DNA of 64,000 nt from Nitrospirota bacterium (GCA_021790195.1 JAJYIF010000018.1:9446-73445); one strand, 5' to 3'. Positions 1,174 to 61,635 are shown, counted from the stretch's first letter. Notes: generated by a model from the letters alone, not told the origin. A program made the numbers and translations.

Positions 1174-1261
1174 CGAATGTGTAAACCTCCGTCAATAAGT
1201 CTATAGTTTCGGCCGTTATGGCGAAACCGACATGGCGCCCAAAAGGCGCACCTGGTGACCG

Positions 1262-2263
1262 CTACCTGCTTACCTCTTTCCTCACGTATCCGTTTCTCCT
1301 GAACCAGATTATCGCCTTTTCCATCGCTTCCTCGACCGGACTTTGAGGCATCTTGAGCTCGTTTATCGCCTTTGAGGGATCGAAGAACATGAACTTTTTC
1401 GCCATCCTGACCCCGGTAAGCGGTATCCTCGGATGCTTCCGGGTCAGTCTCGATACGGCCTCGTCGGCATATGCGGCAAGCAGCACAGGGAAATAAGGCA
1501 GACGGACTTTAGGGGGCCTGAGCTTTGTCATCCGCGCAAGGGTACCAAAGAACTCACTGAGGGTGACATTCTTATTGCCTAGAATATATCTCTGGCCGGC
1601 CTTGCCGTGCTTGGAAGCGAGCCAATGGCCGGCGGCAACGTCCTCAACATCCACAAAATTCAGTCCTGTATTCAGATAGGCCGGGATCCTGCCGTTAAGG
1701 AAATCGACGATCATCTTTCCGGTTGGCGTAGGCTTCCTGTCCATCGGCCCGATGGGAGTCGACGGACAGACGACCACTACCGGGAGGCCTTTCTCGATGA
1801 AGCCGTAAGCCTCTTTCTCGGCCATGAACTTCGACCTCTTGTAGTGGCCCACCATTTCCTTTATGTCCGCAGAACTTTCTTCGTTGGAAGGTTTGCCGTT
1901 AGAGCTCGTAGGGAGGGTCCCGACGGTGCCTGTGTAAATCACCTTTTCCACGTCGAGCTGAAGGGCGGCCCGCATGACGTTCCTCGTCCCCTCGACATTT
2001 ATCTCATACATAGTTTCCGGATCGGGCACCCAGAGCCTGTAATCGGCGGCGAGATGGTAGACCTGCTCACAGCCCCTGAGAGCTCCACGCACCGAGTCGT
2101 AATCCCGCACGTCCCCCGCAAGCGGCTCCACGTCCATAGCCCTGAGCGCCGACGCATCGCTTCCCTCCCTCACAAGGGCCGCAACGCGGAGGCCTTTCCT
2201 GCTTAAAAGTCTGGCCACGTGATATCCGATGAAGCCCGTGGCTCCGGTCACAAGGACCTTCAA
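1262..2263 (-). CDS. hpnA: Hopanoid-associated NAD-dependent sugar epimerase/dehydratase family protein
   Basis: 333 aa; N-terminal Rossmann motif VTGATGFIG; 4-nt overlap with the shc stop. Confidence 0.7.
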   Translation of the reverse strand: MKVLVTGATGFIGYHVARLLSRKGLRVAALVREGSDASALRAMDVEPLAGDVRDYDSVRGALRGCEQVYHLAADYRLWVPDPETMYEINVEGTRNVMRAALQLDVEKVIYTGTVGTLPTSSNGKPSNEESSADIKEMVGHYKRSKFMAEKEAYGFIEKGLPVVVVCPSTPIGPMDRKPTPTGKMIVDFLNGRIPAYLNTGLNFVDVEDVAAGHWLASKHGKAGQRYILGNKNVTLSEFFGTLARMTKLRPPKVRLPYFPVLLAAYADEAVSRLTRKHPRIPLTGVRMAKKFMFFDPSKAINELKMPQSPVEEAMEKAIIWFRRNGYVRKEVSR

Positions 2264-13959: not shown

Positions 13960-16900
13960 AGAAGATAATTGTTCTGTCCGCGCTCGCCGTGGTCTTCGGC
14001 GTTGTCTTCTTTCTTTCAAGAGGCCCGAATGTTTCGAATTTTCTGAAGGGGATAGTACTGCCCGAACTCTCCGCTGCGACAGGACGGCAGGTCACGGCCC
14101 GTAGGATATATGTCAACATCTTCCCGCTCTTTGTCGAGGCGAGGGACCTCAAGGTGATCGAAGAGGGAAAGGAGATCCTGAATGTGCCCCGGGTCAAGGG
14201 GTATGTGGACCTGTCCGGCCTTCTGAGAAAGCGGCTTGTTATGAGGAGACTGGTCGTGAAGGGGATCGACCTGAAGACTGATGCTGTCAAGCTCGAAGAG
14301 ATTATCTCGAATGTCAGGAAATACATCGAATTGCCGAGGAAGACCCCGGTCAAGGTCGTAGTCAGGGCCGTGGCGCTGGAGGACGGCAAATTCGTCCTGG
14401 GTTATAAAGGAGGGCTTTTCAGCGGGAGCGGATTCAGCGGAGAAGCGGTACTCAGCTCCCGGGAGAATTTTCTCAGCCGAAGACGCGCCGCACCGAGGAT
14501 AAGCTTTGCACTGAAGGAACTCGCCTCTACGGTGAAAGGATGGCCTGAGGTCAAGAGCGAGATCAAAGGGGCCTTTTCGATCAAAGACGGCTCGGTGGAG
14601 GTGAAGGCGCTCCAGATAGGATTCTATGGTTCCATGATAAACACAAGCGGCACATTGCTTTCAAAAAGCGGATCGAGTCTGAGTGTCCGCCTGGGCCTTC
14701 TCACGGAATCCTTCAAGAGGATATTCAGTCTGAAGCAGCCGGGTGAGGGAAACGTTTCCGCAAAGGGGACAATACGACTTGCCAAGGACGATCTCGCGAA
14801 TTCCGTTCTGGACCTGGAGGTCAAAGGGAACTTATATGTCCAGACCCTTCTGGAGCTCCTGAAGGTAAATGAACCCGTGAAGGGGCCGGTCGATTTTGCA
14901 GGCTCGATGAAGGGGCCACTGAAGAATATTGTCGGGGAAGCCAGGACGCGTCTGAAGAAAGGCGATCTCTACGGGGTCCGGGTCGACGATCTCAGATGTC
15001 TGGTCAAGTATTCCGGCGGCAGGCTCGACTTCGAGGACGGCAAGGCCTCTTTGTATAACGGCACGGCGGACGCAAATGCCGTTGTGTCTGTAATGGGCGA
15101 TGGGTTCTATTCATTGAACGTGGGTTTTTCCGGCGTCGACAGTCCGCCGGTGCTCGACCTAATCGGATGGAAGCCGGCGATTCCGTTAGGAAAGGTCAGG
15201 GGTGACCTGCACACGTCAGGCACCGAGTTCGATCCCTCGGGCTCGTTTTTGTACGAAAGCAGCCGGCCCGGCAGGGACTTTATCGGAAGAATAAAGAAGA
15301 TAAGAGGGGCTTACAGCCTGAATAAAAGAGTGATAGCCATCGCGAGAGGCTCCCTCAATACCGGCAAGTCCCTTATAGATTTCAGCGGGAACATTGACCT
15401 GGATGACCGCAGGCTTTCCATGTCTGCTCAGATGAAGACGTCCGACATCCTAGACCTTACAGGGCCGGATTATCAGGACGTGACGGGTTCCGGAGAGTTT
15501 GCCGGAACAGTAACGGGCGCCTTTGATGATCCGACAATAAGCGGCAGGGCAAAGCTGGCCGCCGCATCTTACGAAGGTTACGGGCTGGGTGACGTGACCG
15601 CGACCGTGGATTATAGAAAGAACCTTCTCGAACTCAGGGACCTGTCTGCTGTCGCCGGCGCCGGCCCTGAGAATTCGTCCGTTCTCACGATGAAGGGGAC
15701 TGTCAGGTTTCCCGAGAGCAAAGAGCTCTTCGATTTCAAGAAACATTTCTACGACCTGTCATTGACTATGAAGAACGGCGATCTTCAGAGATTTGTCGGG
15801 ATCGTTTATAGGGGTAAGCTGAAGCAGAAGCCCAGTGGAAGGTTTGACGCTGTCACGACGATCAAGGGGTTCGGACCTCAGCCTGTTTTCAAAGGCATCG
15901 GACGCATATCGAACGCCGGCATGGGCAAATTCGGCGTTGATTCCGCGTCTTTTTCTTTTTCGTACGACTACCGGAAATTTACGATCGAAGACGGACTCGC
16001 AAGAAAGGGCGACTCCACACTGTCCGGAAAAGGCAGCATATCCCACGACGACAGGTTCAGCCTCAGGATATCGTCCGGCAAGGTATACCCAAAAGATATA
16101 GTTTCTCTCAAGGGTCTTCCGCCGGATGCTTATGTAACATTCCGGGCCGAAGGCGAGGGCACGTTCGACAACCCCGCAGGGAGTCTGGAAGGCATGATTC
16201 ACGGGGGCAGGCTGAAAGACACCGACCTCGGCGAGGGAAAGGTTTCCGTCCTGGTGAAGGAAAAGGTCCTTTCGCTGGATATGAGTTTTCTCAACAACAA
16301 GGCCGCCCTTACAGGAAAGATGAATCTGACGGACGGGCTGCCGTGGACAGGGCGCCTTGATCTTAAATCCGGGAGGTACGACTATCTCGTGAGCCCCTGG
16401 TTAAAGGAGGTCCCGGAAGATTTCATTCTTAGTTTGAGGGGCTCGGCAGCCATGGCTGGGGACAAGGACCATTTTTCCGCAAAGGTGGTCCTCAGCCAGG
16501 TGGGCACCACTTTTTACGGCAACAATCTCACAAACGACTCCGACATCAATTTCGAGGTGACCGACAGGAAGGTGGTCCTTTCAAATGTCGGACTCAGGAG
16601 CGGAAGCGGATCGTTCAGAATGTCGGGAAGCATGGAAATCGGAAGGGAATACAATCTGGATGTGGAAGGCAATTCCTCGCTTGCTCCGATTAAGGGTCTG
16701 TCAAAGAAAATAGACACGGTGAGGGGAGATGCCGGGTTCGTTTTCTCGGTCACCGGCAAGTGGACCAACCCGAGGATAGACGGCGGTGTTACGGTCAAAA
16801 ACGCGATCTTCGGCGTGAAGGACCTGCCTTACCGGATCAGCTCTCTGAATGGATATCTCTACATGGACGGGGACAGGATCGTGATAGAAAAACTCTCGGG

Positions 16901-37179: not shown

Positions 37180-37234
37180 AATTTAAGAAGTTAACAACGG
37201 AAATCTTAACAGGGATAATTTGAGGGGTGGAGAG

Positions 37235-37801
37235 ATGAAGAAGGTGTTAATCGCGGTCGACGAAACGAAGTCCTCAAGGGCTGTGCTGACAACCTTCCAC
37301 AATTCCGTGCAGGAGCCCGAAGAGGTGGTTCTTATGCACGTGGAGAGACTTGAAGGCCATTCTCTAATGATCGATATGCTGGGCGAAGCCGAACTGTCGA
37401 CATTGAAAGAGTCCGTTTCCGGAACAGAGCATAAGGAGGCCCTGGATAGAAAGGCGAGTGATATCCTCGGCTATTATGCCAGGCAACTCCAGGACAGCGG
37501 GACGTTCAGAATAAAGACCGTCGTCAGAGAAGGCATTCCCGCGGAGGAAATCCTGAAAGTTGCGGACGAGGAAGGCGTTGAGCTGATAATCCTCGGACGC
37601 AGCGAAAGAAAAGGGATCGACAAGATCGTCGCCGGGAACATGGGGAAAGAGGTGGCCAAGGGAGCTAGGGTGCCCGTGCTTATGGCCAGGATGCCTAGCA
37701 TCTGCGAGGCGCCTTATACGTGGAGGGACGCTCTTGCGGCTGTCTCGGTTACTTCTGCGGTGGTCCTCTGTCTGTTTATATTGGGATTGATTCTACGGTA
37801 A
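37235..37801 (+). CDS. Universal stress protein (UspA family) with C-terminal TM anchor, paralog 1
   Basis: MKKVLIAVDETKSS...LMHVE...GVELIILGRS...G..A..V....VPVLM; hydrophobic C-terminus. Confidence 0.8.
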   Translation: MKKVLIAVDETKSSRAVLTTFHNSVQEPEEVVLMHVERLEGHSLMIDMLGEAELSTLKESVSGTEHKEALDRKASDILGYYARQLQDSGTFRIKTVVREGIPAEEILKVADEEGVELIILGRSERKGIDKIVAGNMGKEVAKGARVPVLMARMPSICEAPYTWRDALAAVSVTSAVVLCLFILGLILR

Positions 37802-37830
37802 GGATTGTGTTTAGGAAAAAGGAGGGGGAA

Positions 37831-38418
37831 GTGAAAAAGGTATTGGTAGCGGTGGATGATGTGAAGGGATCGAAGTCGGTGCTGGCGATGTTCAATCACC
37901 TGGTCAGATTGCCTGAGGAGATAATCCTTCTTCATGTAGAAAGGCTCGAAGGGAGCTCGCTGATGATAGATATGCTCGGAGAGGCCGAGCTTTCAACGCT
38001 GAGGGAAGAGCTGAAGGACTCGGAGCACAAGAAGAAGCTGGACATGAAGGCCGGGCAGGTACTCGAGTTTTGCAAGGCAAAGCTGGAGGAGAACGGCCTG
38101 ACCGGAATAAGGACCATGGTGACTGACGGGATCCCCGCAGAGGAGATCCTTAAGGTCTCGATGAAAGAGAACGTTGATCTGATAATCCTGGGCTACGGCC
38201 GCAAGAAGGGGCTTAACAGGTTTATAGCCGGGAGCGTGGCCAGAGACGTAGAAAACAACGCAAAGGCGCCGGTGCTTGTGTCAAGAAGACCCGCGATATG
38301 GGAAGAGGCCTCTATCTGGATGGATGCTTATTATGCCGTCTCATTCTCCACTGTTGTTATCGTGGTAATGTTTTTCCTCGGCATTATCTGGGAGAAGGTG
38401 TTTCTATCTATCAAATGA
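37831..38418 (+). CDS. Universal stress protein with C-terminal TM anchor, paralog 2
   Basis: GTG start after GGAGGGGG; VKKVLVAVDDVKGSKS..., same architecture as paralog 1. Confidence 0.75.
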   Translation: MKKVLVAVDDVKGSKSVLAMFNHLVRLPEEIILLHVERLEGSSLMIDMLGEAELSTLREELKDSEHKKKLDMKAGQVLEFCKAKLEENGLTGIRTMVTDGIPAEEILKVSMKENVDLIILGYGRKKGLNRFIAGSVARDVENNAKAPVLVSRRPAIWEEASIWMDAYYAVSFSTVVIVVMFFLGIIWEKVFLSIK

Positions 38419-38440
38419 AGGATTGTATCTGGAGGAACAA

Positions 38441-38947
38441 ATGAAAAAGATATTGGTGGCAGTAGACGACACAAAGGATTCGAAATCTGTATTGACAGTA
38501 TTCAATAACCTGGTCAGGCCTCCCGAGGAGGTTATCCTTCTCCATGTGGAGCGGCTCGAAGGCAGGTCTATGATGCTCGATATGCTCGGGGAGGCGGAGC
38601 TTTCAACATTAAGGGAGTCCCTGAGAGGGACCGAGTACAAGGAAGAGCTTGACCGGAAGGCGGAAAAGATCCTGAATTACTACAAGAAGGAATTGGAAAG
38701 CGGCGGCCTGATCACCGTCAAGACCGTAATAAAAGAGGGGATCCCCTCGGAGGAGATACTCAAGACCGCTGAAGAAGAAAATGTCGAGCTCATAATCACC
38801 GGCTGCGGCGGGAGCAAGGGCATCGACAGGCTCGTCAGGGGCTGTGTCAGCAAGGACGTGGAAAGGGGCTCCGCAGTGCCGGTGCTTGTGGCAAAAGGAA
38901 CTGTTGAAGAGACCAGCGGTCTGCGCGAGGCAACTCTGGCAGCGTAA
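38441..38947 (+). CDS. Universal stress protein, paralog 3 (soluble)
   Basis: MKKILVAVDDTKDSKS...; GGAGG upstream; same motifs. Confidence 0.8.
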   Translation: MKKILVAVDDTKDSKSVLTVFNNLVRPPEEVILLHVERLEGRSMMLDMLGEAELSTLRESLRGTEYKEELDRKAEKILNYYKKELESGGLITVKTVIKEGIPSEEILKTAEEENVELIITGCGGSKGIDRLVRGCVSKDVERGSAVPVLVAKGTVEETSGLREATLAA

Positions 38948-39072
38948 GTGAGGAGCGAAATAAAAAAAGAAAGGAGAACAAGTCAAAGGCAGGAACAGGT
39001 CGAAAAGACCAAGGGGGTTTTAACGTTGCGCATTGAGCGTGCACATTACTAATTAAGAAGGAGGAGGAATAG

Positions 39073-39597
39073 ATGGAAAAGGTGTTGATCGCAGTTGACG
39101 CCACAGGAGGGTCGCCAGGGATAATGTCACTGCTCCGGGAGGCGGTGTCGGAGCCCAAAAATATTATACTGCTCCACGTCCAGCAGCTGGAAGGCAATAC
39201 TTTGATGACCGCCATGCTCAGCGATTCCGAGATATCGACCATTAAGGACTCGATCAAGGGCACTGAGCATAAGGAGGCCCTCGACAGGAAGGCGGTGAAA
39301 GTCCTCACCCATTATAAGAAGGAGCTCGAAAGTGTCGGCTTCAGGGGCATCAAGACTGTAGTGAGAGAGGGACATCCATCCGAGGAAATCCTGAGGGTCG
39401 CGGAAGAAGAACATGCGGACCTCATAATCGTGGGCTGCAGCGGAAAGTCGCGCCTGCAGAGATATGTCACCGGCTGTGCGTCCAGAGAAGTGGAGAAGAA
39501 CGCGAAGGTGCCCGTGCTGATAGCCAAGGGCGTGGGCATGGGCTGCGGAGAGCACGATCACGTATGGAACGGGAGGGAAGCATATGTTGCCAAGTAA
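39073..39597 (+). CDS. Universal stress protein, paralog 4 (soluble)
   Basis: MEKVLIAVDATGGSPG...; AGGAGGAGG upstream; same motifs. Confidence 0.8.
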   Translation: MEKVLIAVDATGGSPGIMSLLREAVSEPKNIILLHVQQLEGNTLMTAMLSDSEISTIKDSIKGTEHKEALDRKAVKVLTHYKKELESVGFRGIKTVVREGHPSEEILRVAEEEHADLIIVGCSGKSRLQRYVTGCASREVEKNAKVPVLIAKGVGMGCGEHDHVWNGREAYVAK

Positions 39598-40684
39598 CAT
39601 CCTTTCCGCGCTGTCGGCGGTCATTGTCGGTCTCATGTTCGGCTTCGTCTTGCAAAGAGGGCGGTTCTGTCTCAACTCCGCCTTCAGGGACATCATCTTC
39701 GTAAAGGACCTCACTTTCTTCAGGGCATATTTACTCTGCGTGGCTGTCGCGGTGATAGGGACGAATCTCCTGGATCATTTCGGACTCCTCAGGGCCTTCG
39801 ACGAAACTACGGGGCATTATGAGAAGGTCGAACTGATGCGCCAGAGCTTTCTCCCCCTCGCCAACGTCGTCGGCGGCTTCCTCTTCGGAATAGGGATAGT
39901 CCTTGCCGGGGGGTGCGCAAGCGGCATCGTTTACAGGGTAGGGGAGGGACAGGTTTCCACAATAACGGCTATTATAGGCTTTTTCATGGGTGTTGTAATG
40001 ACGACCCAGGGACTGCTGAGCCCCATATATACTTACCTTAAGAGCTTTACCGTCGCGGTAGGGGGCAAGACAAATCCTGCGATATGGGACCTCTTCGGCG
40101 GCGGTGAGACAGCGCGATGGATTACGATCGGCGTATTCTGTCTCGCCCTTCTAGTTATTGTGATGATGGGCAAGCCGTCCTTCGGGAAGAACTCGAAGGC
40201 CTTTTCCTGGGGCCTTACGGGTCTACTTATAGGACTGCTTACAGTGGCGGCGTGGGTCGCCTCTTCCTATTTCGGGGGCGTCCCGAGGGGGCTCGCCATT
40301 ACCACGCCTATCAGAGAGTTCTTCAACGCCGTCCTCTACAAGAGCTCTCACTCCCCCTTCCCGGAATTCAGCTTCCTGGGAATATTCACAGGCACATGGG
40401 GCGTATTTTTTATCTTTGCGGTCCCCTTCGGCGCCCTGATGAGCGCGATCGCCCTAAAAGAATTCAAATGGAAGATCCCACAGGCAAAGGAATTCCTTAC
40501 CGTTCTGTTCGGGAGCATACTGATGGGGGTGGGCTCGGTCATCGCCGGTGGCTGAAACGTCGGTCACGGGGTGACAGGTATGTCAACCATGGCTCTCTCA
40601 AGCTTAGTTGCGATAACTTCCATAGTTCTTGGTAACTGGACAATGGTTTATTTTAAGTTCATAAGACCCATGAATGCGGATTGA
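39584..40684 (+). CDS. YeeE/YedE-family (Sulf_transp) sulfur/selenium-compound transporter, read through in-frame TGA at 40553-40555 (candidate selenocysteine)
   Basis: FGFVLQRGRFCLNSAFRD, LAGGCASG, then VIAGG-TGA-NVGHGVTG; the frame continues 42 codons encoding the last TM helix; family call is strong, the read-through is inference. Confidence 0.6.
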
Positions 40685-40716
40685 ACGGCTGCGGGGGGGC
40701 GGGTTTCGGCCTGCCC

Positions 40717-41373
40717 CTATTCTATCTTTATTATCCCTCTGTGAATAGCGAACTTTATCAAACTGGCCCTGCTGCTGATGTCGAGCTTTTCGCTCAGGTT
40801 GGTCTGATGCGCTATGACGGTCTTCGTGCTTATCGAAAGCATATCCCCGATTTCCTTGTGCGTGTATCCTTCGGCAAGGAGTTTCAGGACCTGCTTTTCC
40901 CTGTCGGTGAGCTTGTCGTAGGGATCCTCCGCGGCCGCTCCCTTGTCTTTCCCAAGGTAGCCTGCGACTACGTTTGACGCGATCGAGGAAAAGAGGTAGA
41001 ACTCTCCATTGCTGACCGCCCTTATGGCGGAAATCAGGTCGCTTCCCACTGCCCGCTTGAGCAGGTATCCCAGGACCCCCGCCTTCAGAAAACGCGCTAT
41101 GTACTCCTTGTCGTCGTATTGAGTGAGCACAAGGATCTTTATGTCCGGGTTGATCTTTTTGAGCTCAACTGTCGCCTCCAGACCGCCGAGCTTCGGCATT
41201 GCTATGTCCATAAGGACGACATCGGGGTTGAATTTCTTGGATTTCTCTATTGCCTCAAGACCGTCGGACGCTTCGGCAATCACCTCTATGTCTTCGGTGA
41301 GCTTGAGGAACGCGACAATACCCTCCCTCACCAAGGCATGATCATCGGCGATAAGAACTCTTATCTTACGCAT
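40717..41373 (-). CDS. NarL/LuxR-family response regulator
   Basis: 218 aa; REC domain (IADDH...D) plus C-terminal LuxR HTH (LTDREKQVLKLLAEGYTHKEIGDMLSIS.KTV). Confidence 0.9.
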   Translation of the reverse strand: MRKIRVLIADDHALVREGIVAFLKLTEDIEVIAEASDGLEAIEKSKKFNPDVVLMDIAMPKLGGLEATVELKKINPDIKILVLTQYDDKEYIARFLKAGVLGYLLKRAVGSDLISAIRAVSNGEFYLFSSIASNVVAGYLGKDKGAAAEDPYDKLTDREKQVLKLLAEGYTHKEIGDMLSISTKTVIAHQTNLSEKLDISSRASLIKFAIHRGIIKIE

Positions 41374-43352: not shown

Positions 43353-44066
43353 TCACCTGCGCTGCAACTCCCTATTCTTTGCACCCGCCTCGTTTTCCGG
43401 CTCCGCAAGCCGTCTCTCAAAGCGTTTCTTTTCGCTGTATCCAATGAATATGCTTTTGTCAAGGGGAAACACGTCCGGGCTGAACATGGAATCGTAGATA
43501 TGCCAGATGGCAACGAGGAGAAAAATCAGCATCGCCTCGTTCGTATGAACGACCTTTGAAGCCGGGATGAATTGTCCCGGGAAATATTTGGTCGCTGCCA
43601 CGGGGAACCAGAGAATGAAACCCGTGACGATCATCTGAATGCCTCCCAAGAGAATAAGCCAGTAAATAAACTTTTCCTTGTAGTTGTATCTGGCGCGCAC
43701 AGCCGGTCTATCGGCAATGCCTATGTAATATCTGACGTTATGCAGTGCGTCAACGAAATCGTTGAAGTTTACGAGCATGGAAGGCTCCCACTGTCTGTAG
43801 ACGATGCCCCAGAAATTCAAGAGGACGTGCTGCGCGACAAGAGCGGTGAAAAGCGCCCCTGCAAGGTGGTGAAGAAACCTTACGCTGTCGATGCCGCCTA
43901 GTACGGCGATAAGGGACTGTGAGACTCCCAGGGCATAAAACTTTTGGGAGAGCCCGGTCGCCGCCAGCGCCGCAAATAGCGCGATAAGCGCAATGTGCTC
44001 TATGATACGGTAAGCGCTGAACCTCCTGACATATTCTTTATCGCCCGACAGTTTGCCGTAAACCAT
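43353..44066 (-). CDS. Membrane b-type cytochrome (FdnI/HydC-like, Ni_hydr_CYTB family)
   Basis: 237 aa; four TM helices with conserved His (IIEHIALI, FLHHLAG, HTNEAML, AIWHIY). Confidence 0.7.
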   Translation of the reverse strand: MVYGKLSGDKEYVRRFSAYRIIEHIALIALFAALAATGLSQKFYALGVSQSLIAVLGGIDSVRFLHHLAGALFTALVAQHVLLNFWGIVYRQWEPSMLVNFNDFVDALHNVRYYIGIADRPAVRARYNYKEKFIYWLILLGGIQMIVTGFILWFPVAATKYFPGQFIPASKVVHTNEAMLIFLLVAIWHIYDSMFSPDVFPLDKSIFIGYSEKKRFERRLAEPENEAGAKNRELQRR

Positions 44067-44081
44067 AGCCTATCCTCCTCC

Positions 44082-45668
44082 TCACCTGCTTGCAAAGTAC
44101 CGCCATATGTCCAGAAAAACCTGGAACAACAGGCCGATCACCATCAGCGGCATCATGAGCTTGTAGAATTCTTCAACGATGAAAACCAGAGGAGCGACTC
44201 TAAGGCTCGGCTTATAATGAGACAGCCATGCATCAGGAAAGTTCTCGGTTGCGTTTGTATGGCATGTATGGCATCGTTTCCGGAGATTCTTCTTTATGGT
44301 AAGCAAGTCGGCGCCGGAAACATTAGTGATGCCGTGCGTTCCGTGGCAGTCGGTGCAGACCGCCATGGGACGATCCGCCCGGTAACGTTTCTGAGCTTCT
44401 TTCCTGTAAAGGCCGAGCGTCACGCCGTGAAAATCGGCGAGATAGCTCTTTACTACGTCGACAGACAGGCCGTATTTGCCCATGATCGCGGCGTTCGAAT
44501 GGCATTTGCTGCACAGGTCCGGTATATAATCGTGAAACTCCGATGATGAGGGATCTTTGATGCTGTGGGAAGAGTGGCAGTCAATGCAGATCGGGACGTC
44601 TTTGTTGTTCTCTTTGAACAGGGCGCTGCCGTGCACGCTCCTCGCATATATTTCGTAAATCCCGCTGTGGCAGGCTTTGCATTTCTGCACCACTGACAGT
44701 CTGCTCCTGCTGAGCGACAAGACCGCGTGCGACCCGTGGCAATCTATGCAGGTTGGCGCATCAAGCCTCCCCGAGTTGAGCATCGAATAATGTATGCTTT
44801 CGGATATCTTCGAATACTTGTCGAAATGGCACCGTTTGCAGATCTCGGCGGATGAAAGTCGGTAGGTTCGCTCAGAGCTGAACCGCCTGTCAGGGTGCTC
44901 CTGCGCCGAGAACCCGAAGTGGCAGTCGGAGCAGCCGACGTTTCTGTGGGGAGAATCTCGGAACTCGGCAACGTCGACGCGGATCGATCTGAATTCTCCG
45001 TTCCTGAAGCGCATACGGTTCTCAAAGGCATGGCAGCGCAGGCAGTAATTATCTTCAGACGTTGAAACGTTGCCGCCGGTGATACGGGCAACGGCATGGG
45101 CGCTGTGGCAATCGGTGCAAATGACCGCCTCTCCGGATCCTTCTTTTTTGAACAATGCCTCGTGGATGGCTCTGGACCTTATGACCCGGTCGGTATGGCA
45201 GTGGCGGCACCCGTGCGACTCTCTGATCCTGTACTGGAGTTTATTCCTGAAGGCGCGGTCCGGGTGGCTTAGGGCGGAGAAATCCACATGGCATGCGGTG
45301 CAGGGGAGCGACCTGTGGACCGACTTGTCAAGTGCCACGGAATCGACATAGGTCGAGACGAAGTCTCCATCAGGGAATTTCTTAACCGAGTTTTTTTCGC
45401 TATGACATCTAAGACATTGTCTCTTCTCTTCCCCTGCCGCTCTCTCCTGGGCGTAAGAGGGACGGGCATGAAGAACCAAACAAAAGATGAACACCACATA
45501 TAGTATACACTTCGCGGCTCTCACGCCGTCCCCCCTTTGTGATAAACGATATCGAGATCCAACTGCGGAGAACAGGAGTCCTTCTCCGAGAACACCCGCT
45601 TCTATCTTATCATCTTTCTCCATAAAAAATAATTTTGCAGGCGTGTCCGACATTCTCTCTCCCGTCAA
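44082..45668 (-). CDS. Multiheme c-type cytochrome, 13 CxxCH motifs, C-terminal TM helix
   Basis: Counted CLRCH, CTACH, CRHCH, CTDCH, CLRCH, CSDCH, CKRCH, CIDCH, CKACH, CIDCH, CSKCH, CTDCH, CHTCH; N-terminal hydrophobic segment; C-terminal MMPLMVIGLLFQVFL. Confidence 0.85.
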   Translation of the reverse strand: MTGERMSDTPAKLFFMEKDDKIEAGVLGEGLLFSAVGSRYRLSQRGDGVRAAKCILYVVFIFCLVLHARPSYAQERAAGEEKRQCLRCHSEKNSVKKFPDGDFVSTYVDSVALDKSVHRSLPCTACHVDFSALSHPDRAFRNKLQYRIRESHGCRHCHTDRVIRSRAIHEALFKKEGSGEAVICTDCHSAHAVARITGGNVSTSEDNYCLRCHAFENRMRFRNGEFRSIRVDVAEFRDSPHRNVGCSDCHFGFSAQEHPDRRFSSERTYRLSSAEICKRCHFDKYSKISESIHYSMLNSGRLDAPTCIDCHGSHAVLSLSRSRLSVVQKCKACHSGIYEIYARSVHGSALFKENNKDVPICIDCHSSHSIKDPSSSEFHDYIPDLCSKCHSNAAIMGKYGLSVDVVKSYLADFHGVTLGLYRKEAQKRYRADRPMAVCTDCHGTHGITNVSGADLLTIKKNLRKRCHTCHTNATENFPDAWLSHYKPSLRVAPLVFIVEEFYKLMMPLMVIGLLFQVFLDIWRYFASR

Positions 45669-46921
45669 TGCGTGCCTTCATATTCCGGCAGTTCGCGCGT
45701 TACAGGAAATCTGTTCAGTATCCACCTGAAAACGAGTATATGGAGCGTGACCATCGCCATGATCATCATAATCTCGGTCCCCGGCGGGATAATCCGGTGC
45801 AGATGTCCGGGCAAGTGCCAGTTGAAAGCGATCAGGTTGACGTTCACCCTGTTCAGCAGAATCCCGAACAGTGCAAACAGGGCGGAGAAACGTATCAGCT
45901 TCAGACTTTGAGATTTCACTCCTGCAGTGAACAAAACCATCGGCATTGCCACAAAACCGAGCAGCTCAACCAGGTACCAATAACCGTACGGAGTCGTCAG
46001 GAGTCCCCAGCGATCATCCTGTGCCAGGGCGAGCACCTTCAGGGCGAAGTAGACGTACATGGACAATGCGGCCCCTTTGCCTAAACTGAGGGTTAGCGAG
46101 GGCGTGCTCGATATGAACTTCGCGTCGCATTTGTCCCTGAAATAACGTACGGCCACGAAGGCAAGGAGAATCGCAAACGACATGGCGGCGTAGACCGCCG
46201 AGCTGAAAAACAACAGTGGAAGATGTGATGAGTACCATAAGGGGTGAAGCTTGCCCGGCGTCAGGAGATACATGGCGCCGAGGGCCGACTGGTGAACCGT
46301 AGAGAGGATAACCCCGCCGATAATCAGCGCTACTGTTGTGGAAACGGCCCATCTGTGAAGACGCCTCGATCCCAGCCACTCAAGGATGGCCGGAGAGAAC
46401 TCCAGAAGCTGCACAGTACAGTAAAGAGCTACGTGCCAGGCCACGATGAAGAGGACCGAAGACGGGCCGAGATTAACGAGCATCGGGTAATATATGCGCC
46501 ACGGCCGCCCCAGATCGATTAGCAGGTATGAGGCTGCGAAGGCGTACCCTAACATTCCGCCGAGCACGGCGAGACGCACCAGAGGCCTGTAAGACTTCAT
46601 GCCGAACAGGTAATAAGCCGCTGCCACGACAAAGCCCGCGGCGAACAGCGGCTCACCCGCGAAGATTCCCCAACTCAGGAGGAGTCCCCAGGGATATTCG
46701 CTGGTGGCGTCCATGACGCTCGCAAGTCCTCTTGTGTATCTCATTATGAACACGGGCGCTGAGGCGACAAGGATCGCAACGGCGGCCAGATTGAAAGGCG
46801 TCGCCAGAGAGCGGGCGTACTCGGATACGCTCATCCCCATGAACAGCTTATCCATGAACCAGTTGCGGAATTCCGCAGAAGACGCAGACGATTGAGCGGT
46901 GTATTGAATGCCGTTATCCAT
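45665..46921 (-). CDS. NrfD/PsrC/HmcC-type integral membrane quinone-interacting subunit
   Basis: Start chosen at MDNGIQY (AAGGAGGGG upstream); about 8-10 TM helices; sits next to a 4-cluster FeS subunit. Confidence 0.75.
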   Translation of the reverse strand: MDNGIQYTAQSSASSAEFRNWFMDKLFMGMSVSEYARSLATPFNLAAVAILVASAPVFIMRYTRGLASVMDATSEYPWGLLLSWGIFAGEPLFAAGFVVAAAYYLFGMKSYRPLVRLAVLGGMLGYAFAASYLLIDLGRPWRIYYPMLVNLGPSSVLFIVAWHVALYCTVQLLEFSPAILEWLGSRRLHRWAVSTTVALIIGGVILSTVHQSALGAMYLLTPGKLHPLWYSSHLPLLFFSSAVYAAMSFAILLAFVAVRYFRDKCDAKFISSTPSLTLSLGKGAALSMYVYFALKVLALAQDDRWGLLTTPYGYWYLVELLGFVAMPMVLFTAGVKSQSLKLIRFSALFALFGILLNRVNVNLIAFNWHLPGHLHRIIPPGTEIMMIMAMVTLHILVFRWILNRFPVTRELPEYEGTH

Positions 46922-47909
46922 TGTTCCCCTCCTTGTGCTGTCTTTCCGGTTCTGTCGGGTCGCCCTTGCGTGTTGCGGCATATATGAGACCGAAGATCGC
47001 AGGGAACGTCGTAAAGATCACCGGAACCGTGGACAGATAACCCTTTGTGAGCTCTATGAGCGGCTTCTTCGGGAGATTAGTCGGGAAGCCCAGTTGCTCG
47101 AAAGGCACGCCCGAGATATAGAGCCATGAAGTGCCCCCGACTTCGTGCTCGCCGTAGATGTGGCTTACATATTTATCGGGGTGCTCGGCGATTCTCTTCC
47201 GGGCAAGCTTCAGGAGATCCGCTCTCTTGCCGAAAGTGAGCGCGCCCGCCGGGCACGCTTCCGCGCAGCCGGGAAGTTGACCTTTCTTGATCCTGCCGTA
47301 ACAGAGAATGCACTTCATTATCTTGGGCTGCAGGGCGCTTTCATAGTCATAGCCAGGGATATTGAAGGGACACCCGATAACGCAGTAACGGCAGCCGAAA
47401 CAAAGCTTTTCATTATAAATGACCGGACCTTCTGGTGTTTTTGTATACGCATGGATGGGGCATGCCGTGGCGCACGCCGGCTCTAAACAGTGGTTGCACT
47501 GGATTTTCCGATAAACCGGCCTGCTAGGATCCCCAGGATTCTCATACCGGTTGACGACGGTGAGGGCTTTGGCATTGGGCCAGCGCCGCTCGTTGAAGAC
47601 TGAAGCGTCGTCAAAGGGTTTTTCGGGCGCCGGCATCCGATTGACTTCGTTGCACGCGCGTTCACAACTCCTGCAACCGACGCAAGCGGTGAAGTCCGTC
47701 AGCATCCCATAGCTTTTGGGCCAGCCCTCGAACTCGGGCGCGGCCCCGGCGCGGGCTGGGAGACCGAGCGCAGTGCAACCCGCCAGCATCGATATAGAAA
47801 GAAAGCTCCGCCTGGAGAGCCGGGCGGAACGCCCTGCGGCATCCTGCGCAGCGCCGCCACCGGGGTCCTCCGACCGGTTCTTCTTGATCTTGATCTTAAT
47901 CATAAGCAT
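46914..47909 (-). CDS. Tat-exported four-cluster [4Fe-4S] ferredoxin subunit (NrfC/PsrB/HmcB type)
   Basis: SRRSFLS twin-arginine motif; CVGCRSCERAC, CNHCLEPACATACP, CFGCRYCVIGCP, CILC...CAEACP. Confidence 0.85.
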   Translation of the reverse strand: MLMIKIKIKKNRSEDPGGGAAQDAAGRSARLSRRSFLSISMLAGCTALGLPARAGAAPEFEGWPKSYGMLTDFTACVGCRSCERACNEVNRMPAPEKPFDDASVFNERRWPNAKALTVVNRYENPGDPSRPVYRKIQCNHCLEPACATACPIHAYTKTPEGPVIYNEKLCFGCRYCVIGCPFNIPGYDYESALQPKIMKCILCYGRIKKGQLPGCAEACPAGALTFGKRADLLKLARKRIAEHPDKYVSHIYGEHEVGGTSWLYISGVPFEQLGFPTNLPKKPLIELTKGYLSTVPVIFTTFPAIFGLIYAATRKGDPTEPERQHKEGNNG

Positions 47910-47938
47910 GACCTCCTTATATTATCCGGCATTGTGCT

Positions 47939-48409
47939 TCATCTAGTCTGCGTGTGACATGTCTTGACGCATCCTTCCGGCGAGGAACCCAGTTCTCCGA
48001 CGCCGATGTGGCACTCGAAGCACTTTTTATGAAAAGCTACTTTCAGTCCAGGCATCTCCGGCGTATCGGGAGAATAGTCCGTATGGCATCCGCTGCACGG
48101 CAGAAAACCGTTTTTTACTGAAGCCTTGAATTGACCGGCGCTCAGCGAATGGCACTCGCCGCACATTGCCCTTGTCTTGTCGTTGTGCTGGTGATGACAC
48201 TTCCCGCAGCTGCCCGCCAGGGACACGTGCATCGAGTGGTCGAAAGTTACCGGGCCGTAGCGATTCTGAAGATACTTGATGATGATGACGCCGGGGGCGT
48301 CGGTTCCTTCAGCTCTCGCCGAAAAAACATCCGGGACCGTAATTATTCCGGCGGTTATCAGGATCGCGCAAACCAGAAGCAATAATGTTTTGACAGAGTG
48401 TCTTTTCAT
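47939..48409 (-). CDS. Small periplasmic class III (c3-type) multiheme cytochrome
   Basis: 156 aa; signal peptide; CGKCH, CGECH, CSGCH, CFECH plus CVKTCH (CxxxCH). Confidence 0.8.
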   Translation of the reverse strand: MKRHSVKTLLLLVCAILITAGIITVPDVFSARAEGTDAPGVIIIKYLQNRYGPVTFDHSMHVSLAGSCGKCHHQHNDKTRAMCGECHSLSAGQFKASVKNGFLPCSGCHTDYSPDTPEMPGLKVAFHKKCFECHIGVGELGSSPEGCVKTCHTQTR

Positions 48410-55722: not shown

Positions 55723-55898
55723 GTTAGCGAGATGAAGACATTTAAATAAGGGGGTGGTGGAGAGGTGATTGTTGCAGTAGCTGTCAACTCTGATCCGTAA
55801 TGTTTATTCAAAACAACAAATGATCTTGTCATTATCAATCTGAGTGTGTGTTTATTGTTGAATTTTTTATGACAAACCAACAGAAAGAGGAGGAAGAA

Positions 55899-58739
55899 AT
55901 GAAGCAATGTTCTGTTTCAGGCATTAAGCTTTTCGTGTTAGCAGTCTTGGTTCTTTCGGCTTTTTCTCTTATGTTAGGTTGTAGCGGTGACGCCGGCTCT
56001 ACGGGTCCCGCGGGTCCCGCAGGACCTTCTGGTCCAGCGGCGCCCACTACAGGAACTATTTCCGGGACCGTGACGACATCCACGGGTGTTGCCCTTGAAG
56101 GCATTCAGGTGAGCGCTTTCAGCAACAAGACGGTCTCAAAGGTCGCCTCAGACAGCGCTGAGAATTATAGGCAGGCTATGGCCCTTCAGGCGAGTGCTAC
56201 CCCGGTTGCAACGGCGACCACCGACAGCAGCGGTAACTACTCAATGAACAACGTGCCGCCGGGTAGTTGCACTATAAACTTTTTCGATCCTAACGGCCAT
56301 TTCACAATAGGGTCTATAAACAATGTTCAGGTGATAGCCGGCTCTTCGATCATAGCAAACGCCGGCATGGGAAGCGCAACGCCTGTGACCGAGTCGGCCG
56401 GCGGTCAGACTTCGGTCGCAGTGGCGAGCTCCGACAATGAAGTGGGATATGGCAACACGATATCTCTTACCGCATCCGCCACAAGTCCGATATCCGGAGC
56501 TACGTTGACTTATACATGGTCAGGGGCGACGCAAGGCAGCACTCCTACAACCGCTACCGCGACCATGCCTACCCTTGCCAAGGCTATGGGCGGCACTCCC
56601 GCGCCGTCAAACGACCCCGGAGGATATGTAGCTCCGCAGCCGATGGAAAACCGTTTCGGAGTGCTCCCTACGACCGCAGACACGCGCGGCACCGCAAGTC
56701 CTAATGTTACCGTGACCGACGGTATGGGCGGCTCGGTATCCGTCACAGTTACGCTCTACGCAACCGGCGTCCAGCCCGGGGTTATGGATGTCGCTATAGG
56801 CGTCCCCGTCTATCTCAACAGCGGTCACGACAGCGGTAATTCCTGGTCGATGACCGTTCCTACCGGCTCATCGGCGACCCTTTTCAACGCCAATACGCGG
56901 AACGCGTGGTTTAAGCCCGATATCACCGGCAAATATACGTTAACGGAAGGCTCCAACTCAATGGCTATATATGCCGGCAAATGGGTTGGAGTCATAGCAA
57001 ACGGCGGTTATGTTACAAAGACCGTCACGGCGGACGAGGTCGGGATATGGGCCGGCGCAGCAGGAACATATACCAACTGGCCTTTTGTCACGCCTGATTC
57101 AGGCTGCACGACATGCCATCTGAACAATGTTGTAGTCAACGGCCTGACGGCCGTCGATGAGTTCACGCCGTGGGCCCAGACCGCGCACGCCACGTTCTTC
57201 TCCCGCGGATTGGAAGGAATTACGTCTAATAACGGCACTTGTCTCACCTGCCACACCGTCGGCTACGATCTGTCGCCGAGCGCCGTCAATGACGGTTTCG
57301 ACGACATGGCCAAGTTCGAGAACTTCATCTATGCAAAGACTAGCACTACCAACCCTAACGCCTGGCAGAACATGCTGATCAAGGCCCCGAGGACCGCGAA
57401 GGTCTCGAATATACAGTGCGAGAACTGTCATGGTCCGCAGGACACCGGACCTAACGGCGCACATATCTCGGGGCTGTCCGGAGGGACCTCCGGCGCCGTC
57501 GGAGGAACAAGGGTCAACTATTCTGCGGAGGTATGCGCTACGTGTCACGCCTCCGGCACCGGACATCACTTCTATTCGGAGTGGGTTAATTCCATCAATC
57601 CGGAGTCTAGTTCGGCCAATAAGGGCCACTCCCATCTGGGGCAGATCGATGCCACCGGTTATAGCGGTCACGCACAGTCGACCAACGTCTCATGTTCGAG
57701 GTGCCACACGGCAGAGGGATTCACAGCATATGTTGACCAGCTTTCAGCCGGCAATCCGGCGGTGCTTCCTTCAGACGCCATCGTATGGACCAAGAACAAC
57801 GCGCATGTACAGACCTGCACAGGGTGTCATGACCCGCATGACGATACGAACCCGAACCAGCTGCGTCTGTATGATTCGATACCGATGACCATGGCCGGTT
57901 TCGGCGTATCCGGTATGGGGAAGGGAGCTGTTTGTGTGGCCTGTCATAATATCAGGAATGGTGTACAGTGCAACCTGCCTCTGACCTCTGTGGGCACATG
58001 TCCGAGCGGCGGCGTTCAGAGCGGCGCGCCTTTCCTTCACGAGGACAACGATCCTGTTGCTGCTACTTATATGGATACTCCTCATGACAACGCCTCCGCC
58101 GACGTCTTCATGGGCCGCAACGCCTTCTTTGTGAGCGGACTTCCGATGCTTTCGAAGCATGCCGCAGTCGAAGATACCTGCGTGGGCTGTCACATGACGA
58201 ACCAGCCGGCGACTCATCTGTCTCACGGAGCAACTGCTGTCAGCTCCCATCAATTCTATATTCTGGACTCGGACAGGAAGATGTCCACTATTCTTCCCGG
58301 ACGCCTTGGTCCGAATGGCGTCGCTTTCTGTGCGAACTGCCACAGCACCAGCGTTGACGGCGAGGCGCTGGTTACAACTGTCGAAAACAGTCTCGCGACT
58401 CTTGCGGATAAGATGGCGGCCAATCTTAAGTCCAGGGTATTAGGAACGACCATCTACGTCGGCAGTAGCCACACTGCGGTCGCGGTAAGCGACTCGACGG
58501 TCGTGACCTTGCCTGAAGACTCGACGAACTTCAGTTTCACTAACGGCTCGACAACGGTTTCAGGCGGTCTTTCTACCATAACCACCGATTCTGCCGGCAC
58601 TACGCTGGTGTTCAGTACGAACGACATATTGAAGAAGGGCCTGTGGAACTACATACTCATCTACAGAGACCAGAGCAAGGGCATCCACAACCCGACCTTT
58701 GTCAATACGGTTCTGAGCAATACGCTCGCTCAGTTCTGA
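55899..58739 (+). CDS. Large multiheme c-type cytochrome lipoprotein (9 CxxCH) with collagen-like linker and CarboxypepD_reg-like domain
   Basis: Start at ATG 55899 after AGAGGAGG; lipobox MLGC; GPAGPAGPSGP; TGTISGTVTT...SGNYSMNNVPPGSC; CTTCH, CLTCH, CENCH, CATCH, CSRCH, CTGCH, CVACH, CVGCH, CANCH. Confidence 0.8.
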   Translation: MKQCSVSGIKLFVLAVLVLSAFSLMLGCSGDAGSTGPAGPAGPSGPAAPTTGTISGTVTTSTGVALEGIQVSAFSNKTVSKVASDSAENYRQAMALQASATPVATATTDSSGNYSMNNVPPGSCTINFFDPNGHFTIGSINNVQVIAGSSIIANAGMGSATPVTESAGGQTSVAVASSDNEVGYGNTISLTASATSPISGATLTYTWSGATQGSTPTTATATMPTLAKAMGGTPAPSNDPGGYVAPQPMENRFGVLPTTADTRGTASPNVTVTDGMGGSVSVTVTLYATGVQPGVMDVAIGVPVYLNSGHDSGNSWSMTVPTGSSATLFNANTRNAWFKPDITGKYTLTEGSNSMAIYAGKWVGVIANGGYVTKTVTADEVGIWAGAAGTYTNWPFVTPDSGCTTCHLNNVVVNGLTAVDEFTPWAQTAHATFFSRGLEGITSNNGTCLTCHTVGYDLSPSAVNDGFDDMAKFENFIYAKTSTTNPNAWQNMLIKAPRTAKVSNIQCENCHGPQDTGPNGAHISGLSGGTSGAVGGTRVNYSAEVCATCHASGTGHHFYSEWVNSINPESSSANKGHSHLGQIDATGYSGHAQSTNVSCSRCHTAEGFTAYVDQLSAGNPAVLPSDAIVWTKNNAHVQTCTGCHDPHDDTNPNQLRLYDSIPMTMAGFGVSGMGKGAVCVACHNIRNGVQCNLPLTSVGTCPSGGVQSGAPFLHEDNDPVAATYMDTPHDNASADVFMGRNAFFVSGLPMLSKHAAVEDTCVGCHMTNQPATHLSHGATAVSSHQFYILDSDRKMSTILPGRLGPNGVAFCANCHSTSVDGEALVTTVENSLATLADKMAANLKSRVLGTTIYVGSSHTAVAVSDSTVVTLPEDSTNFSFTNGSTTVSGGLSTITTDSAGTTLVFSTNDILKKGLWNYILIYRDQSKGIHNPTFVNTVLSNTLAQF

Positions 58740-60269: not shown

Positions 60270-60712
60270 AACACATGAAGACGATGACACTTGCGGCGCT
60301 CCTGGCTGTTTCTTTATTAAGTGTTTACTCTTGCGCCGGCACAAACAGTCTGGCGAAGACGCATCCGGTCGAGATCAAGGAGCTTGCTGAAGCTGTCTGC
60401 AGCAATTGTCATACTAATGAATGGGCCGCCTTTGACCATGTGGGCGACTTCCTGACGAGACATAAGGCTTTTGCGGCCCAGAAGAAGCAAGCTTGCGAAG
60501 TCTGTCATGCCGAGTCCTTTTGCACGGACTGCCATGCCAGCAAGGCCGGACTAAGCCCGAGCGACAGGTATAAGGACTCCCCGGAGATCTCCTATCCCCA
60601 CAGGGGAGATTATCTGACCCAGCACATGATCGACGGCCGGGTCAACCCGGCCCTCTGCATGAAGTGCCACGGCCGCCAGAACAATGAGAGGTGCAGAGCA
60701 TGCCACAAATGA
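60266..60712 (+). CDS. Small multiheme c-type cytochrome (5 CxxCH), probable lipoprotein
   Basis: 148 aa; VYSC lipobox-like; CSNCH, CEVCH, CTDCH, CMKCH, CRACH; ATGA overlap with the barrel gene. Confidence 0.8.
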   Translation: MKHMKTMTLAALLAVSLLSVYSCAGTNSLAKTHPVEIKELAEAVCSNCHTNEWAAFDHVGDFLTRHKAFAAQKKQACEVCHAESFCTDCHASKAGLSPSDRYKDSPEISYPHRGDYLTQHMIDGRVNPALCMKCHGRQNNERCRACHK

Positions 60713-61635
60713 ACAGAATGCTGATATCGGTTTTTTTTCTCTTCCTGGGACTTGTTCTGTTGGGCGGCTGCGGCAGTTCACCCAACTCGTCGTCTACAAC
60801 GGTCAGCCCGGTCCAGGCGGCACATCCGGCAGGCTGGCTCCCTGCGGGGCATGTCGCAGCCGCGGAATCAAGCTTGTCGTCCTGCACCCAGTGCCATGGC
60901 AGCGATTTTTCGGGAGGGATTTCGACGGTTGCCTGCACCAAGTGCCACCTGGGCAATGAGCAAGTCATCCATCCTCTCGATTGGGACAATCTTGTGGGGA
61001 CAAAACACGCGGAATATGTCAGGAGCAAAGGCGACTCTGCCTGTTCAAATATATATTGTCATGGCGCGGACTTGAACGGGGTGTCCGGCAGCGGCCCGTC
61101 GTGTTCGAGCTGTCACCTTGGCGGCAAGGGTTCAGTTCATCCTCAGGATTGGGGATCGCTTGCCTATTCGAAGCACTCTGCCTATGTGGCCCAATATGGA
61201 ACAGCAGCCTGCTCGAACGTGGTCTGTCACGGCGCGGACCTGAGCGGAGTGACCGACAGCGGCCCGTCGTGTTCCAGTTGTCATCTCGGCGGGCCGAACT
61301 CTGTTCATCCCCAGGACTGGGGGGCTTTGACTTACGTAAGACACATGGCCTATGTCTCCCAGAACGGAACAGCGTCCTGTGCCAACGGCGTTTGCCATGG
61401 CGCGGACCTGAGCGGAGTGACCGACAGCGGACCGTCGTGTTCCAGCTGTCACCTCGGCGGGCCAAGCTCTGTTCATCCCCCTGACTGGGCAAGTGATTTC
61501 CTGCAGCACGGCACGTATGTAAATACTAACGGTGCAGGCTCTTGCAGAAATGCAGTCTGCCACGGACCGGACCTGCAGGGAGTTGCGGCAAGCGGGCAGA
61601 GCTGTTTCCTTTGCCATCAATTTTCCATTCCATAA
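60709..61635 (+). CDS. Repeat-built multiheme cytochrome lipoprotein: CxxxxCH...CxxCH modules (10 heme motifs)
   Basis: ATGA-coupled start MNRMLISVFF; lipobox LGGC; CTQCH, CTKCH, then four units each with CSNIYCH/CSNVVCH/CANGVCH/CRNAVCH plus CSSCH/CSSCH/CSSCH/CFLCH. Confidence 0.8.
   Translation: MNRMLISVFFLFLGLVLLGGCGSSPNSSSTTVSPVQAAHPAGWLPAGHVAAAESSLSSCTQCHGSDFSGGISTVACTKCHLGNEQVIHPLDWDNLVGTKHAEYVRSKGDSACSNIYCHGADLNGVSGSGPSCSSCHLGGKGSVHPQDWGSLAYSKHSAYVAQYGTAACSNVVCHGADLSGVTDSGPSCSSCHLGGPNSVHPQDWGALTYVRHMAYVSQNGTASCANGVCHGADLSGVTDSGPSCSSCHLGGPSSVHPPDWASDFLQHGTYVNTNGAGSCRNAVCHGPDLQGVAASGQSCFLCHQFSIP
60967..61635 (+). repeat. Tandem 168-bp (56-codon) coding repeats, about 4 units
   Basis: Equivalent CAT (His of VHPxDW) codons at 60970, 61138, 61306, 61474, i.e. 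an exact 168-bp period; units 2 and 3 nearly identical in protein. Confidence 0.85.

Follow-up and report, generated by a model that had tools for sequence, protein, structure and literature searches.

We report that the TGA triplet at 40553-40555 of a 64,000-nucleotide stretch from a Nitrospirota bacterium (GCA_021790195.1, JAJYIF010000018.1:9446-73445), within a gene for a YeeE/YedE family transporter, is very probably a genuine, well-supported selenocysteine (Sec) codon, as judged by comparative sequence analysis; the whole stretch is referred to below as the window. The open reading frame (ORF) of this gene (39584-40555, + strand) stopped at the TGA, directly 3' of the residues VIAGG, and the frame past it held 42 sense codons, NVGHGVTGMSTMALSSLVAITSIVLGNWTMVYFKFIRPMNAD, before a further TGA at 40682-40684. 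The initial annotation of this DNA had proposed Sec at this TGA, at the position of the second GGC cysteine of the family. The position of the TGA, its VIAGG context and the 42-codon frame that it described were all correct in coordinates and sequence, and its core reading was borne out by the pairing of Sec and Cys orthologs, selection on the tail, RNA constraint specific to the TGA forms, a hairpin fitting the bacterial model and Sec use in relatives. The open frame by itself was weak evidence, as a frame of 42 codons would be expected to stay open by chance in about 13% of cases. The gene and the residues on which the argument depends are listed here, with the equivalent positions in Spirochaeta thermophila YeeE (StYeeE).

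39584-40684, + strand: full YeeE/YedE gene (PF04143, TsuA-like), 366 residues with the putative Sec at 324, plus the stop codon
40553-40555, + strand: UGA as putative selenocysteine, residue 324; LD-loop counterpart of StYeeE Cys293 and of Cys302 in E. coli YeeE, at thiosulfate position I
40556-40681, + strand: tail after the putative Sec codon, 42 codons, encoding the final transmembrane helix and, ahead of it, a short helix that follows the LD loop; aligns with StYeeE residues 294-330
39668-39670, + strand: codon of Cys29, in RGRFCLNSAF of the LA loop; equivalent to StYeeE C22
39914-39916, + strand: codon of Cys111, in LAGGCASG of the LB loop; equivalent to StYeeE C91

Membership of the protein in the family was tested across the TGA, as the initial annotation had suggested, by reading the triplet as Cys. 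Residues 25-353 then aligned with positions 1-310 of the 310-position PF04143 (Sulf_transp) profile (E 4e-67; 227 bits, gathering cut-off 27). With the profile covered from end to end, the domain does not end at the TGA; a product stopping there would cut it at profile position ~280 of 310. A PDB sequence search aligned residues 12-361 with StYeeE (6LEO, E 8e-36) and placed position 324 on StYeeE Cys293 within the common motif AGGC-N-(I/V)-GH, while the tail supplied the final helix that had been expected of it. The RGRFCLNSAF and LAGGCASG motifs were both present as described, so that the three conserved loop cysteine positions of the family were occupied by Cys29, by Cys111 and, at the third, by the TGA, where 71 orthologs carried Cys. 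In StYeeE, loops LA, LB and LD contribute C22, C91 and C293, spaced ~7 Å apart along the pore, and C293 touches bound thiosulfate at the periplasmic “position I”; the substitution C293A, as well as C302S in E. coli YeeE, abolishes function (PMC7449682).

The homology to the thiosulfate uptake proteins StYeeE/TsuA (PDB 6LEO, 6LEP, 8J4C, 8K1R) and E. coli YeeE was full-length and included the same loop cysteine positions. Differences from StYeeE were the predicted Sec where StYeeE has C293 and a loop-LC arginine that was offset by two residues in the pairwise alignment. The TsuA/YeeE equivalog cut-offs were missed (NCBIfam NF052577, 212.9 against 400; NF041049, 133.2 against 645), and the protein should therefore be regarded as a homolog rather than a certified equivalog, its substrate being proposed by analogy. 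YedE/FdhT (NF033796, TIGR04112), a membrane protein of selenium metabolism from the same Pfam superfamily, gave only partial, sub-threshold matches (85 bits against 350, and 45 against 200). A role in selenium transport has been ascribed to YedE, which is not a selenoprotein itself. In all likelihood, the gene specifies a complete YeeE/TsuA-like protein whose substrate-contacting position in the LD loop is occupied by Sec. By analogy with its characterized homologs, its substrate is likely thiosulfate, and it would serve in the import of thiosulfate or a related sulfur (or selenium) anion.

The closest relatives were taken from a collection of 5.8 billion proteins. Three of the closest clusters ended at 323 aa (97, 87 and 85% identity), and many full-length relatives of 364-366 aa, at 75-83% identity, read AGGCNLGHGVTG. 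The DNA behind the short clusters (loci L001-L004) had the TGA in the same place, with a conserved tail of 41-42 codons behind it. A scan of one genome per species, comprising 80 loci nearly all labelled as Nitrospirota or Thermodesulfovibrionia metagenome-assembled genomes (MAGs), added the TGA forms L031, L054, L059, L060, L062 and L073; a DNA-pattern scan of metagenomes added L085-L089, with TGA and tail in all five. MAGs bearing TGA forms included JAWOJY01, JAKBYX01, JAJYJK01, JAKAHV01, JBKBUA01 and MTOX01. TGA at the codon of residue 324 together with the conserved tail was thereby found in 14 other distinct sequences, and 71 distinct Cys-form orthologs had TGC or TGT at that codon. The search for Cys and Sec ortholog pairs, which the initial annotation had put forward as a check, thus returned both forms in quantity. 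In a neighbor-joining tree, built without bootstrap, the TGA forms stood in at least three separate places: the window clade, whose sisters were the Cys forms L005 and L055; L031, within a Cys clade; and a deeper, mostly-TGA clade with one nested Cys form (L050).

The tail was conserved in every form, whether Sec or Cys. In pairwise comparisons over 39 of its codons, the ratio of nonsynonymous to synonymous divergence (dN/dS) was 0.01-0.2, with a proportion of synonymous differences (pS) of 0.6-0.9, near saturation, beyond codon +14. These values indicated that the tail is translated in this frame. The outcome that had been named as contrary to a Sec codon, orthologs truncated at the same point with nothing conserved downstream, was contradicted by this purifying selection.

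Two mutually exclusive hairpins could be drawn in the RNA immediately downstream of the UGA, of which the one termed helix B was the best candidate for a selenocysteine insertion sequence (SECIS).

40562-40594, + strand: helix B, best SECIS candidate; lower stem 40562-40566/40590-40594, upper stem 40569-40576/40581-40588, loop GGUA at 40577-40580
40563-40575, + strand: helix A, GUCAC-GGG-GUGAC, the hairpin of the initial annotation; -3.5 kcal/mol, mutually exclusive with helix B, role uncertain

Helix B had a 5-bp stem and a loop 21 nt past the UGA. The 33-nt element had a folding energy of -12.3 kcal/mol (z -2.96), its constrained local fold one of -8.2 kcal/mol, and helix B was dominant in the predicted ensemble of the window (P 0.91). 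In the published bacterial SECIS model (PMC13188914), the loop is 3-9 nt long, has a G among its first two nucleotides and is separated from the UGA by 16-37 nt, the upper stem has 4 bp or more, and the minimum free energy is -7.5 kcal/mol or lower. Helix B agreed with this model when its criteria were applied by a script written for this analysis, and not by bSECISearch. Under the same filter, all 14 distinct TGA forms passed, each with the homologous hairpin, against five of the 71 Cys forms with any hairpin and only one of the 71 with the homologous hairpin; the background was 40 of 208 control Cys codons of window genes (19%). The Sec forms had GG at loop positions 1-2 or 2-3, and their loops lay 20-21 nt after the UGA.

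Constraint at the RNA level was specific to the TGA forms. The upper-stem pairs were kept at a mean of 4.6 of 5 in the Sec forms versus 2.4 of 5 in the Cys forms. Synonymous divergence over codons +1 to +14 was 0.41 between well-diverged Sec-Sec pairs, compared with 0.73-0.74 in the flanks, while in Cys-Cys pairs it was 0.72, with flanks of 0.76-0.79. Third positions were most constrained in codons +5, +6 and +9 to +12, the arms of helix B. Cys forms encoding the identical peptide GHGVTGMSTM mostly used GUU/GUA and UCC/UCG/UCU, codons that break the stem. At codon +9, the Cys sisters of the window clade had Phe, in a place where AUG or GUG is required of Sec forms; the residues seen there in Sec forms were Met, Val or Ala (GCG). 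Such a pattern would represent a clean case of a coding-region SECIS limiting the choice of both codon and amino acid.

The SECIS of E. coli fdhF is the reference bacterial Sec insertion element, and its sequence was verified here against 5,419 E. coli genomes. The upper part of helix B, GG(G)UGACA-GGUA-UGUCA(A)CC, resembled the fdhF element, GG(U)UGCA-GGUC-UGCACC. Both are located inside the coding sequence just past the UGA, both have a short upper stem with a 4-nt loop starting GGU, and both carry a bulge or mismatch two pairs above the base of the upper stem. They differed in spacing, with the loop 21 nt after the UGA in helix B and 18 nt in fdhF, and in the G·A mismatch by which helix B replaces the bulged U of fdhF.

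Some of the orthologous loci had features of their own. L050 (10979-11020), the sole Cys-type gene nested in the mostly-Sec clade, had lost every trace of the hairpin (GGC CUU ACG GGC GUC UCC), as would be expected if the RNA constraint relaxes after a change from Sec to Cys. When L031 (7040-7250) was compared with L003 (990-1200), DNA identity of the YeeE genes was 51-74% over most of the gene and 86-87% over the last 180 nt, and the ~60 nt around the TGA and hairpin were identical. The L031 tail residues ALSSLVATVSIIL were L003-like and unlike those of its own Cys-type relatives. The mosaic has the appearance either of a gene conversion event in which Sec codon and SECIS travelled together as a single cassette, or of a chimeric assembly. 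Two to three paralogous YeeE genes per MAG, all of Cys type, were observed in L013/L015/L045 (JBAIXS01), L027/L039 (JACRHD01) and L077/L081 (JAWOKY01). Since paralogs occur within single MAGs, Sec and Cys copies could share a genome and exchange sequence.

Use of Sec in the lineage was indicated by selD, the only real match when E. coli SelA, SelB and SelD were searched by tblastn against 1.2 Mb of loci. It was located in L007, a MAG with a Cys-type YeeE (75% identical), at 13130-14158, and had an in-frame TGA at the position of the catalytic Cys; read through this TGA, L007 SelD scored 339 bits on TIGR00476. Two other matches were rejected, namely a selB-like one in L061, which was the GTPase domain midway through an IF2-like ORF of 771 aa, and one in L044, an 82-aa fragment. 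Among the matches listed, 120 of 120 homologs of L007 SelD were N-terminally short, and all six distinct selD genes inspected (L007, L094:2953, L097:2878, L098:1698, L100:3926, L101:3953) had an in-frame TGA at the catalytic site (AGG-U-AAKLGP). Database calls of selD begin downstream of this TGA, and SelD is consequently annotated as an N-terminally truncated protein. The selD genes of these related Nitrospirota also carried a conserved hairpin, AGGUCC-GGC-GGACCU, with its loop 17 nt after the UGA. Sec-type selD was present in three related Nitrospirota MAGs with Cys-type YeeE (QZJG01, DYJL01, JACQZF01) and on two further related contigs. In L007, selD was 2 kb from the Cys-type YeeE gene, a closeness that is probably incidental, as the order selD-HEAT-scpA was itself conserved. 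The supplement of Peng et al. 2016 counts two Thermodesulfovibrio genomes among the users of Sec. On this genomic evidence, the lineage is one that decodes Sec.

As to which hairpin would act as the SECIS, the one described in the initial annotation does exist at 40563-40575, but its proposed extension to 40559-40579 was not part of the minimum-energy fold, and as a SECIS candidate it gave way to helix B. We consider helix B the probable element, although with some reserve. It was preferred in part because a stem starting 7 nt past the UGA should be unwound while the UGA is in the A site; the stem of helix A would presumably lie within the ribosomal mRNA channel at that moment. The helix A loop follows the UGA by 12 nt in the window and by 11-12 nt across the forms, outside the 16-37 nt of the model and short of the 17 nt of the SelD element of the lineage and the 18 nt of fdhF. 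Helix A was broken in several Sec forms (L062, L073/L089, L085, L086), in all of which helix B was intact, and the strongest Sec-specific synonymous constraint fell on a 3' arm unique to helix B, at the third positions of codons +9 to +12. It is therefore unlikely that Sec is inserted with helix A (loop GGG), or its extended form 40557-40566/40572-40581, as the SECIS. Such an arrangement would nevertheless accord with the perfect helix A of the window clade (5 of 5 pairs), with the dominance of the extended 10-bp form in the predicted ensembles of L059, L060, L087 and L088, with some Sec-specific synonymous conservation in the arms of helix A, and with the similarity of GGUCA..GGG..UGACC to the SelD hairpin of related Nitrospirota. 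That SelD element was like helix A in sequence and nearer to helix B in geometry. Among the Sec forms, 86.6% versus 84.3% of cells were paired for the two hairpins, which were too invariant to be separated in this way.

Several results weighed against a Sec codon served by helix B, and concerned both the decoding machinery and the RNA. A search of the 64-kb window and of the other ~11 kb of its 75-kb contig yielded neither selA nor selB, selC or selD. ARAGORN detected no tRNA-Sec in the window or in 13 Sec-form loci, the Pfam annotation of ~48 window ORFs contained no sel genes, and the SelD homologs that were traced were all in assemblies other than the MAG of the window. Rfam returned no SECIS or other RNA family, either in a gathering scan of the whole window or in a permissive scan of 40530-40690. 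Covariation in the Sec forms was weak, with one compensatory pair (U-A to C-G), as the encoded peptide is nearly invariant. The first 60 nt folded as a whole were no more stable than shuffled sequences (z -0.3), from which only the 33-nt element could be told apart, and in a 57-nt context the ensemble favored helix A in 4 of the 14 Sec forms.

The existing gene models would make the TGA a true stop, with a truncated 323-residue product, or a decaying pseudogene, lacking the third essential cysteine and the last helix. Predicted proteins P0001, P0019 and P0020 were all 323 aa and ended at the internal TGA, as did the 323-residue gene call in every database copy examined. TGA was also the commonest stop codon in the window, serving as the normal stop in 19 of 38 Pfam-supported genes, and so has not been reassigned across the genome. 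Among TGA-split ORFs of the window, a scan brought up no other credible selenoprotein gene. Termination here is nevertheless very improbable. The in-frame tail was conserved in the 14 other TGA-bearing sequences at the low dN/dS given above, the TGA coincided exactly with a cysteine that neither StYeeE nor E. coli YeeE can do without, a stop would leave the Pfam domain incomplete, and a terminator-like hairpin was situated past 40684 and not past the internal TGA. An error of sequencing or assembly in place of TGC or TGT would require a change of a single base, but we consider it next to impossible, as the same codon occurred in many divergent orthologs and the exact 323-aa ORF was recovered on four contigs, including the ENA metagenome assembly ERZ27233560 and the NCBI MAG GCA_027371615.1 (DAHXMS01), which excluded a base-calling error.

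Translation of the tail could also be imagined without selenium, either by near-cognate read-through of the UGA with Trp or Cys or from an internal start, with the RNA structure aiding read-through or re-initiation. In its favor, no Sec machinery was found on the 75-kb contig, and an ATG is present nine codons past the TGA. Such a process appears improbable, however, given that orthologs have Cys and not Trp at residue 324, that codons +1 to +8 were conserved as much as the remaining tail, and that, where the internal start would have to be, L086 has GCG (Ala) and others have GTG. The fdhF-like hairpin, which fits the SelB-type SECIS model, and the relatives with Sec-type SelD also spoke for insertion of Sec. 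With a Sec codon as the preferred reading, the 323-aa gene calls drop an essential cysteine equivalent together with the last helix, and re-annotation of these genes as full-length selenoproteins is warranted.

SelB-dependent decoding in this organism is inferred, as would be any kinetic or redox advantage of Sec. With the ribosome at the UGA, the hairpin at 40569-40588 would be located just outside the ribosome and would recruit SelB and Sec-tRNA(Sec), allowing translation to proceed through the last transmembrane helix and to end at the stop at 40682. Sec would replace the LD-loop cysteine (C293 in StYeeE) at the periplasmic mouth, and its selenol may be the first acceptor among Sec324, Cys111 and Cys29, passing the sulfur substrate through the hourglass pore. 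Exchange of Sec and Cys is typical of nucleophilic, redox-active cysteines. A natural exchange at the thiosulfate-binding residue would hint at the role of a nucleophile rather than of a hydrogen-bond donor. If Sec has indeed replaced Cys at two pore positions, a doubtful reading taken up below, this would argue for transport by a transient covalent S-S/Se-S relay (persulfide/thiosulfonate) and not for the S-H-S hydrogen-bond guidance proposed from the crystal structure. The window clade and its Cys sisters, 80-83% identical, provide a ready pair of variants.

Selenoproteins of this family have been catalogued before, which answers a question raised in the initial annotation. A “YeeE/YedE family” selenoprotein was recorded with five sequences in five organisms (Peng et al. 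2016 ISME J, Supplementary Table S3), a YeeE/YedE (thiosulfate transporter) family selenoprotein was listed in the 2022 review by Zhang et al. (PMC9312934), and a 2026 review, also by Zhang and co-workers, gave the Sec motif GUxSG with WP_012471001.1 as the representative (PMC13188914). The family name was absent from the main text of the cited source papers and appeared in the supplementary table of Peng et al. 2016 only. The Sec site, the SECIS and the Nitrospirota clade were not described in the reviews PMC9312934 and PMC13188914 or in the Peng 2016 table, nor was the Sec site of WP_012471001.1 described in the cited source papers, the deep-Sep paper or the 2015 YedE paper. Since published lists already include YeeE/YedE proteins with Sec, as well as other transporters that contain it, the gene studied here is a well-supported new example and not a new category.

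The catalogued protein and the present one are alike in belonging to PF04143, in having one Sec per protein and in being bioinformatic predictions only. Compared by printed motif only, GUxSG did not match the GGU-N-V-G-H of this site, and it fitted instead the LB-loop GGC-A-S-G of the window protein and StYeeE, which corresponds to StYeeE C91. The catalogued representative may have Sec at a different cysteine or may be a divergent or half-size member of the family. Tentatively, and with more doubt than confidence, the LD-loop Sec (C293) could be at a different cysteine from the catalogued GUxSG site in the LB loop (C91). If so, two of the three pore cysteines would have been exchanged for Sec in nature, the LD-loop one repeatedly. 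The L031 mosaic, if true, would add a Sec codon and SECIS moving between paralogs as a single cassette by gene conversion.

The genes and signals adjoining the YeeE/YedE gene were as follows.

37220-39597, + strand: four tandem universal stress protein (Usp) genes upstream of YeeE, the last one at 39073-39597
40695-40718, + strand: terminator-like hairpin with a T-rich tail, just past the extended stop and not past the internal TGA
40717-41373, - strand: convergent response-regulator gene, 32 bp from the read-through stop

The last Usp gene overlapped the YeeE start by 14 nt, suggesting that these genes probably form one operon. A promoter-like site was observed at 37191-37219, ahead of the Usp genes, and the order Usp-YeeE-response regulator was also found in L001. 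Reading through the TGA reduced the distance to the convergent gene from 161 to 32 bp, a closing of the gap that had been anticipated in the first reading of the sequence. No YeeD/TsuB (TusA-like) partner was adjacent to the gene, and there was no room for one between the Usp gene at 39073-39597 and the response regulator. In this respect, the locus differed from that of StYeeE/TsuA, its neighbors being Usp genes and a two-component system. Gene context differed in the other clades: the neighborhoods of L073 and L087 had no conserved context and contained no TusA, DsrE or rhodanese partner.

Elsewhere in the window, a cluster at 43353-48409 (- strand), by a histidine kinase/response regulator pair, encoded a cytochrome b561-like protein, a 528-aa multiheme cytochrome c, an NrfD-type subunit, a 4Fe-4S protein and a small c7-like cytochrome; the cluster amounts to a quinone-linked redox module in which no catalytic molybdopterin subunit is obvious. 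Two ORFs of 963 and 314 aa at 55848-58739 and 60691-61635 (+ strand) had MtrC/MtrF-like multiheme cytochrome domains and were reminiscent of extracellular electron transfer proteins. A hopanoid-type set at 169-4302 (- strand) comprised a squalene-hopene cyclase gene (2260-4302), a gene for an NAD-dependent epimerase-like protein and one for a radical SAM/DUF3463 protein (169-1173).

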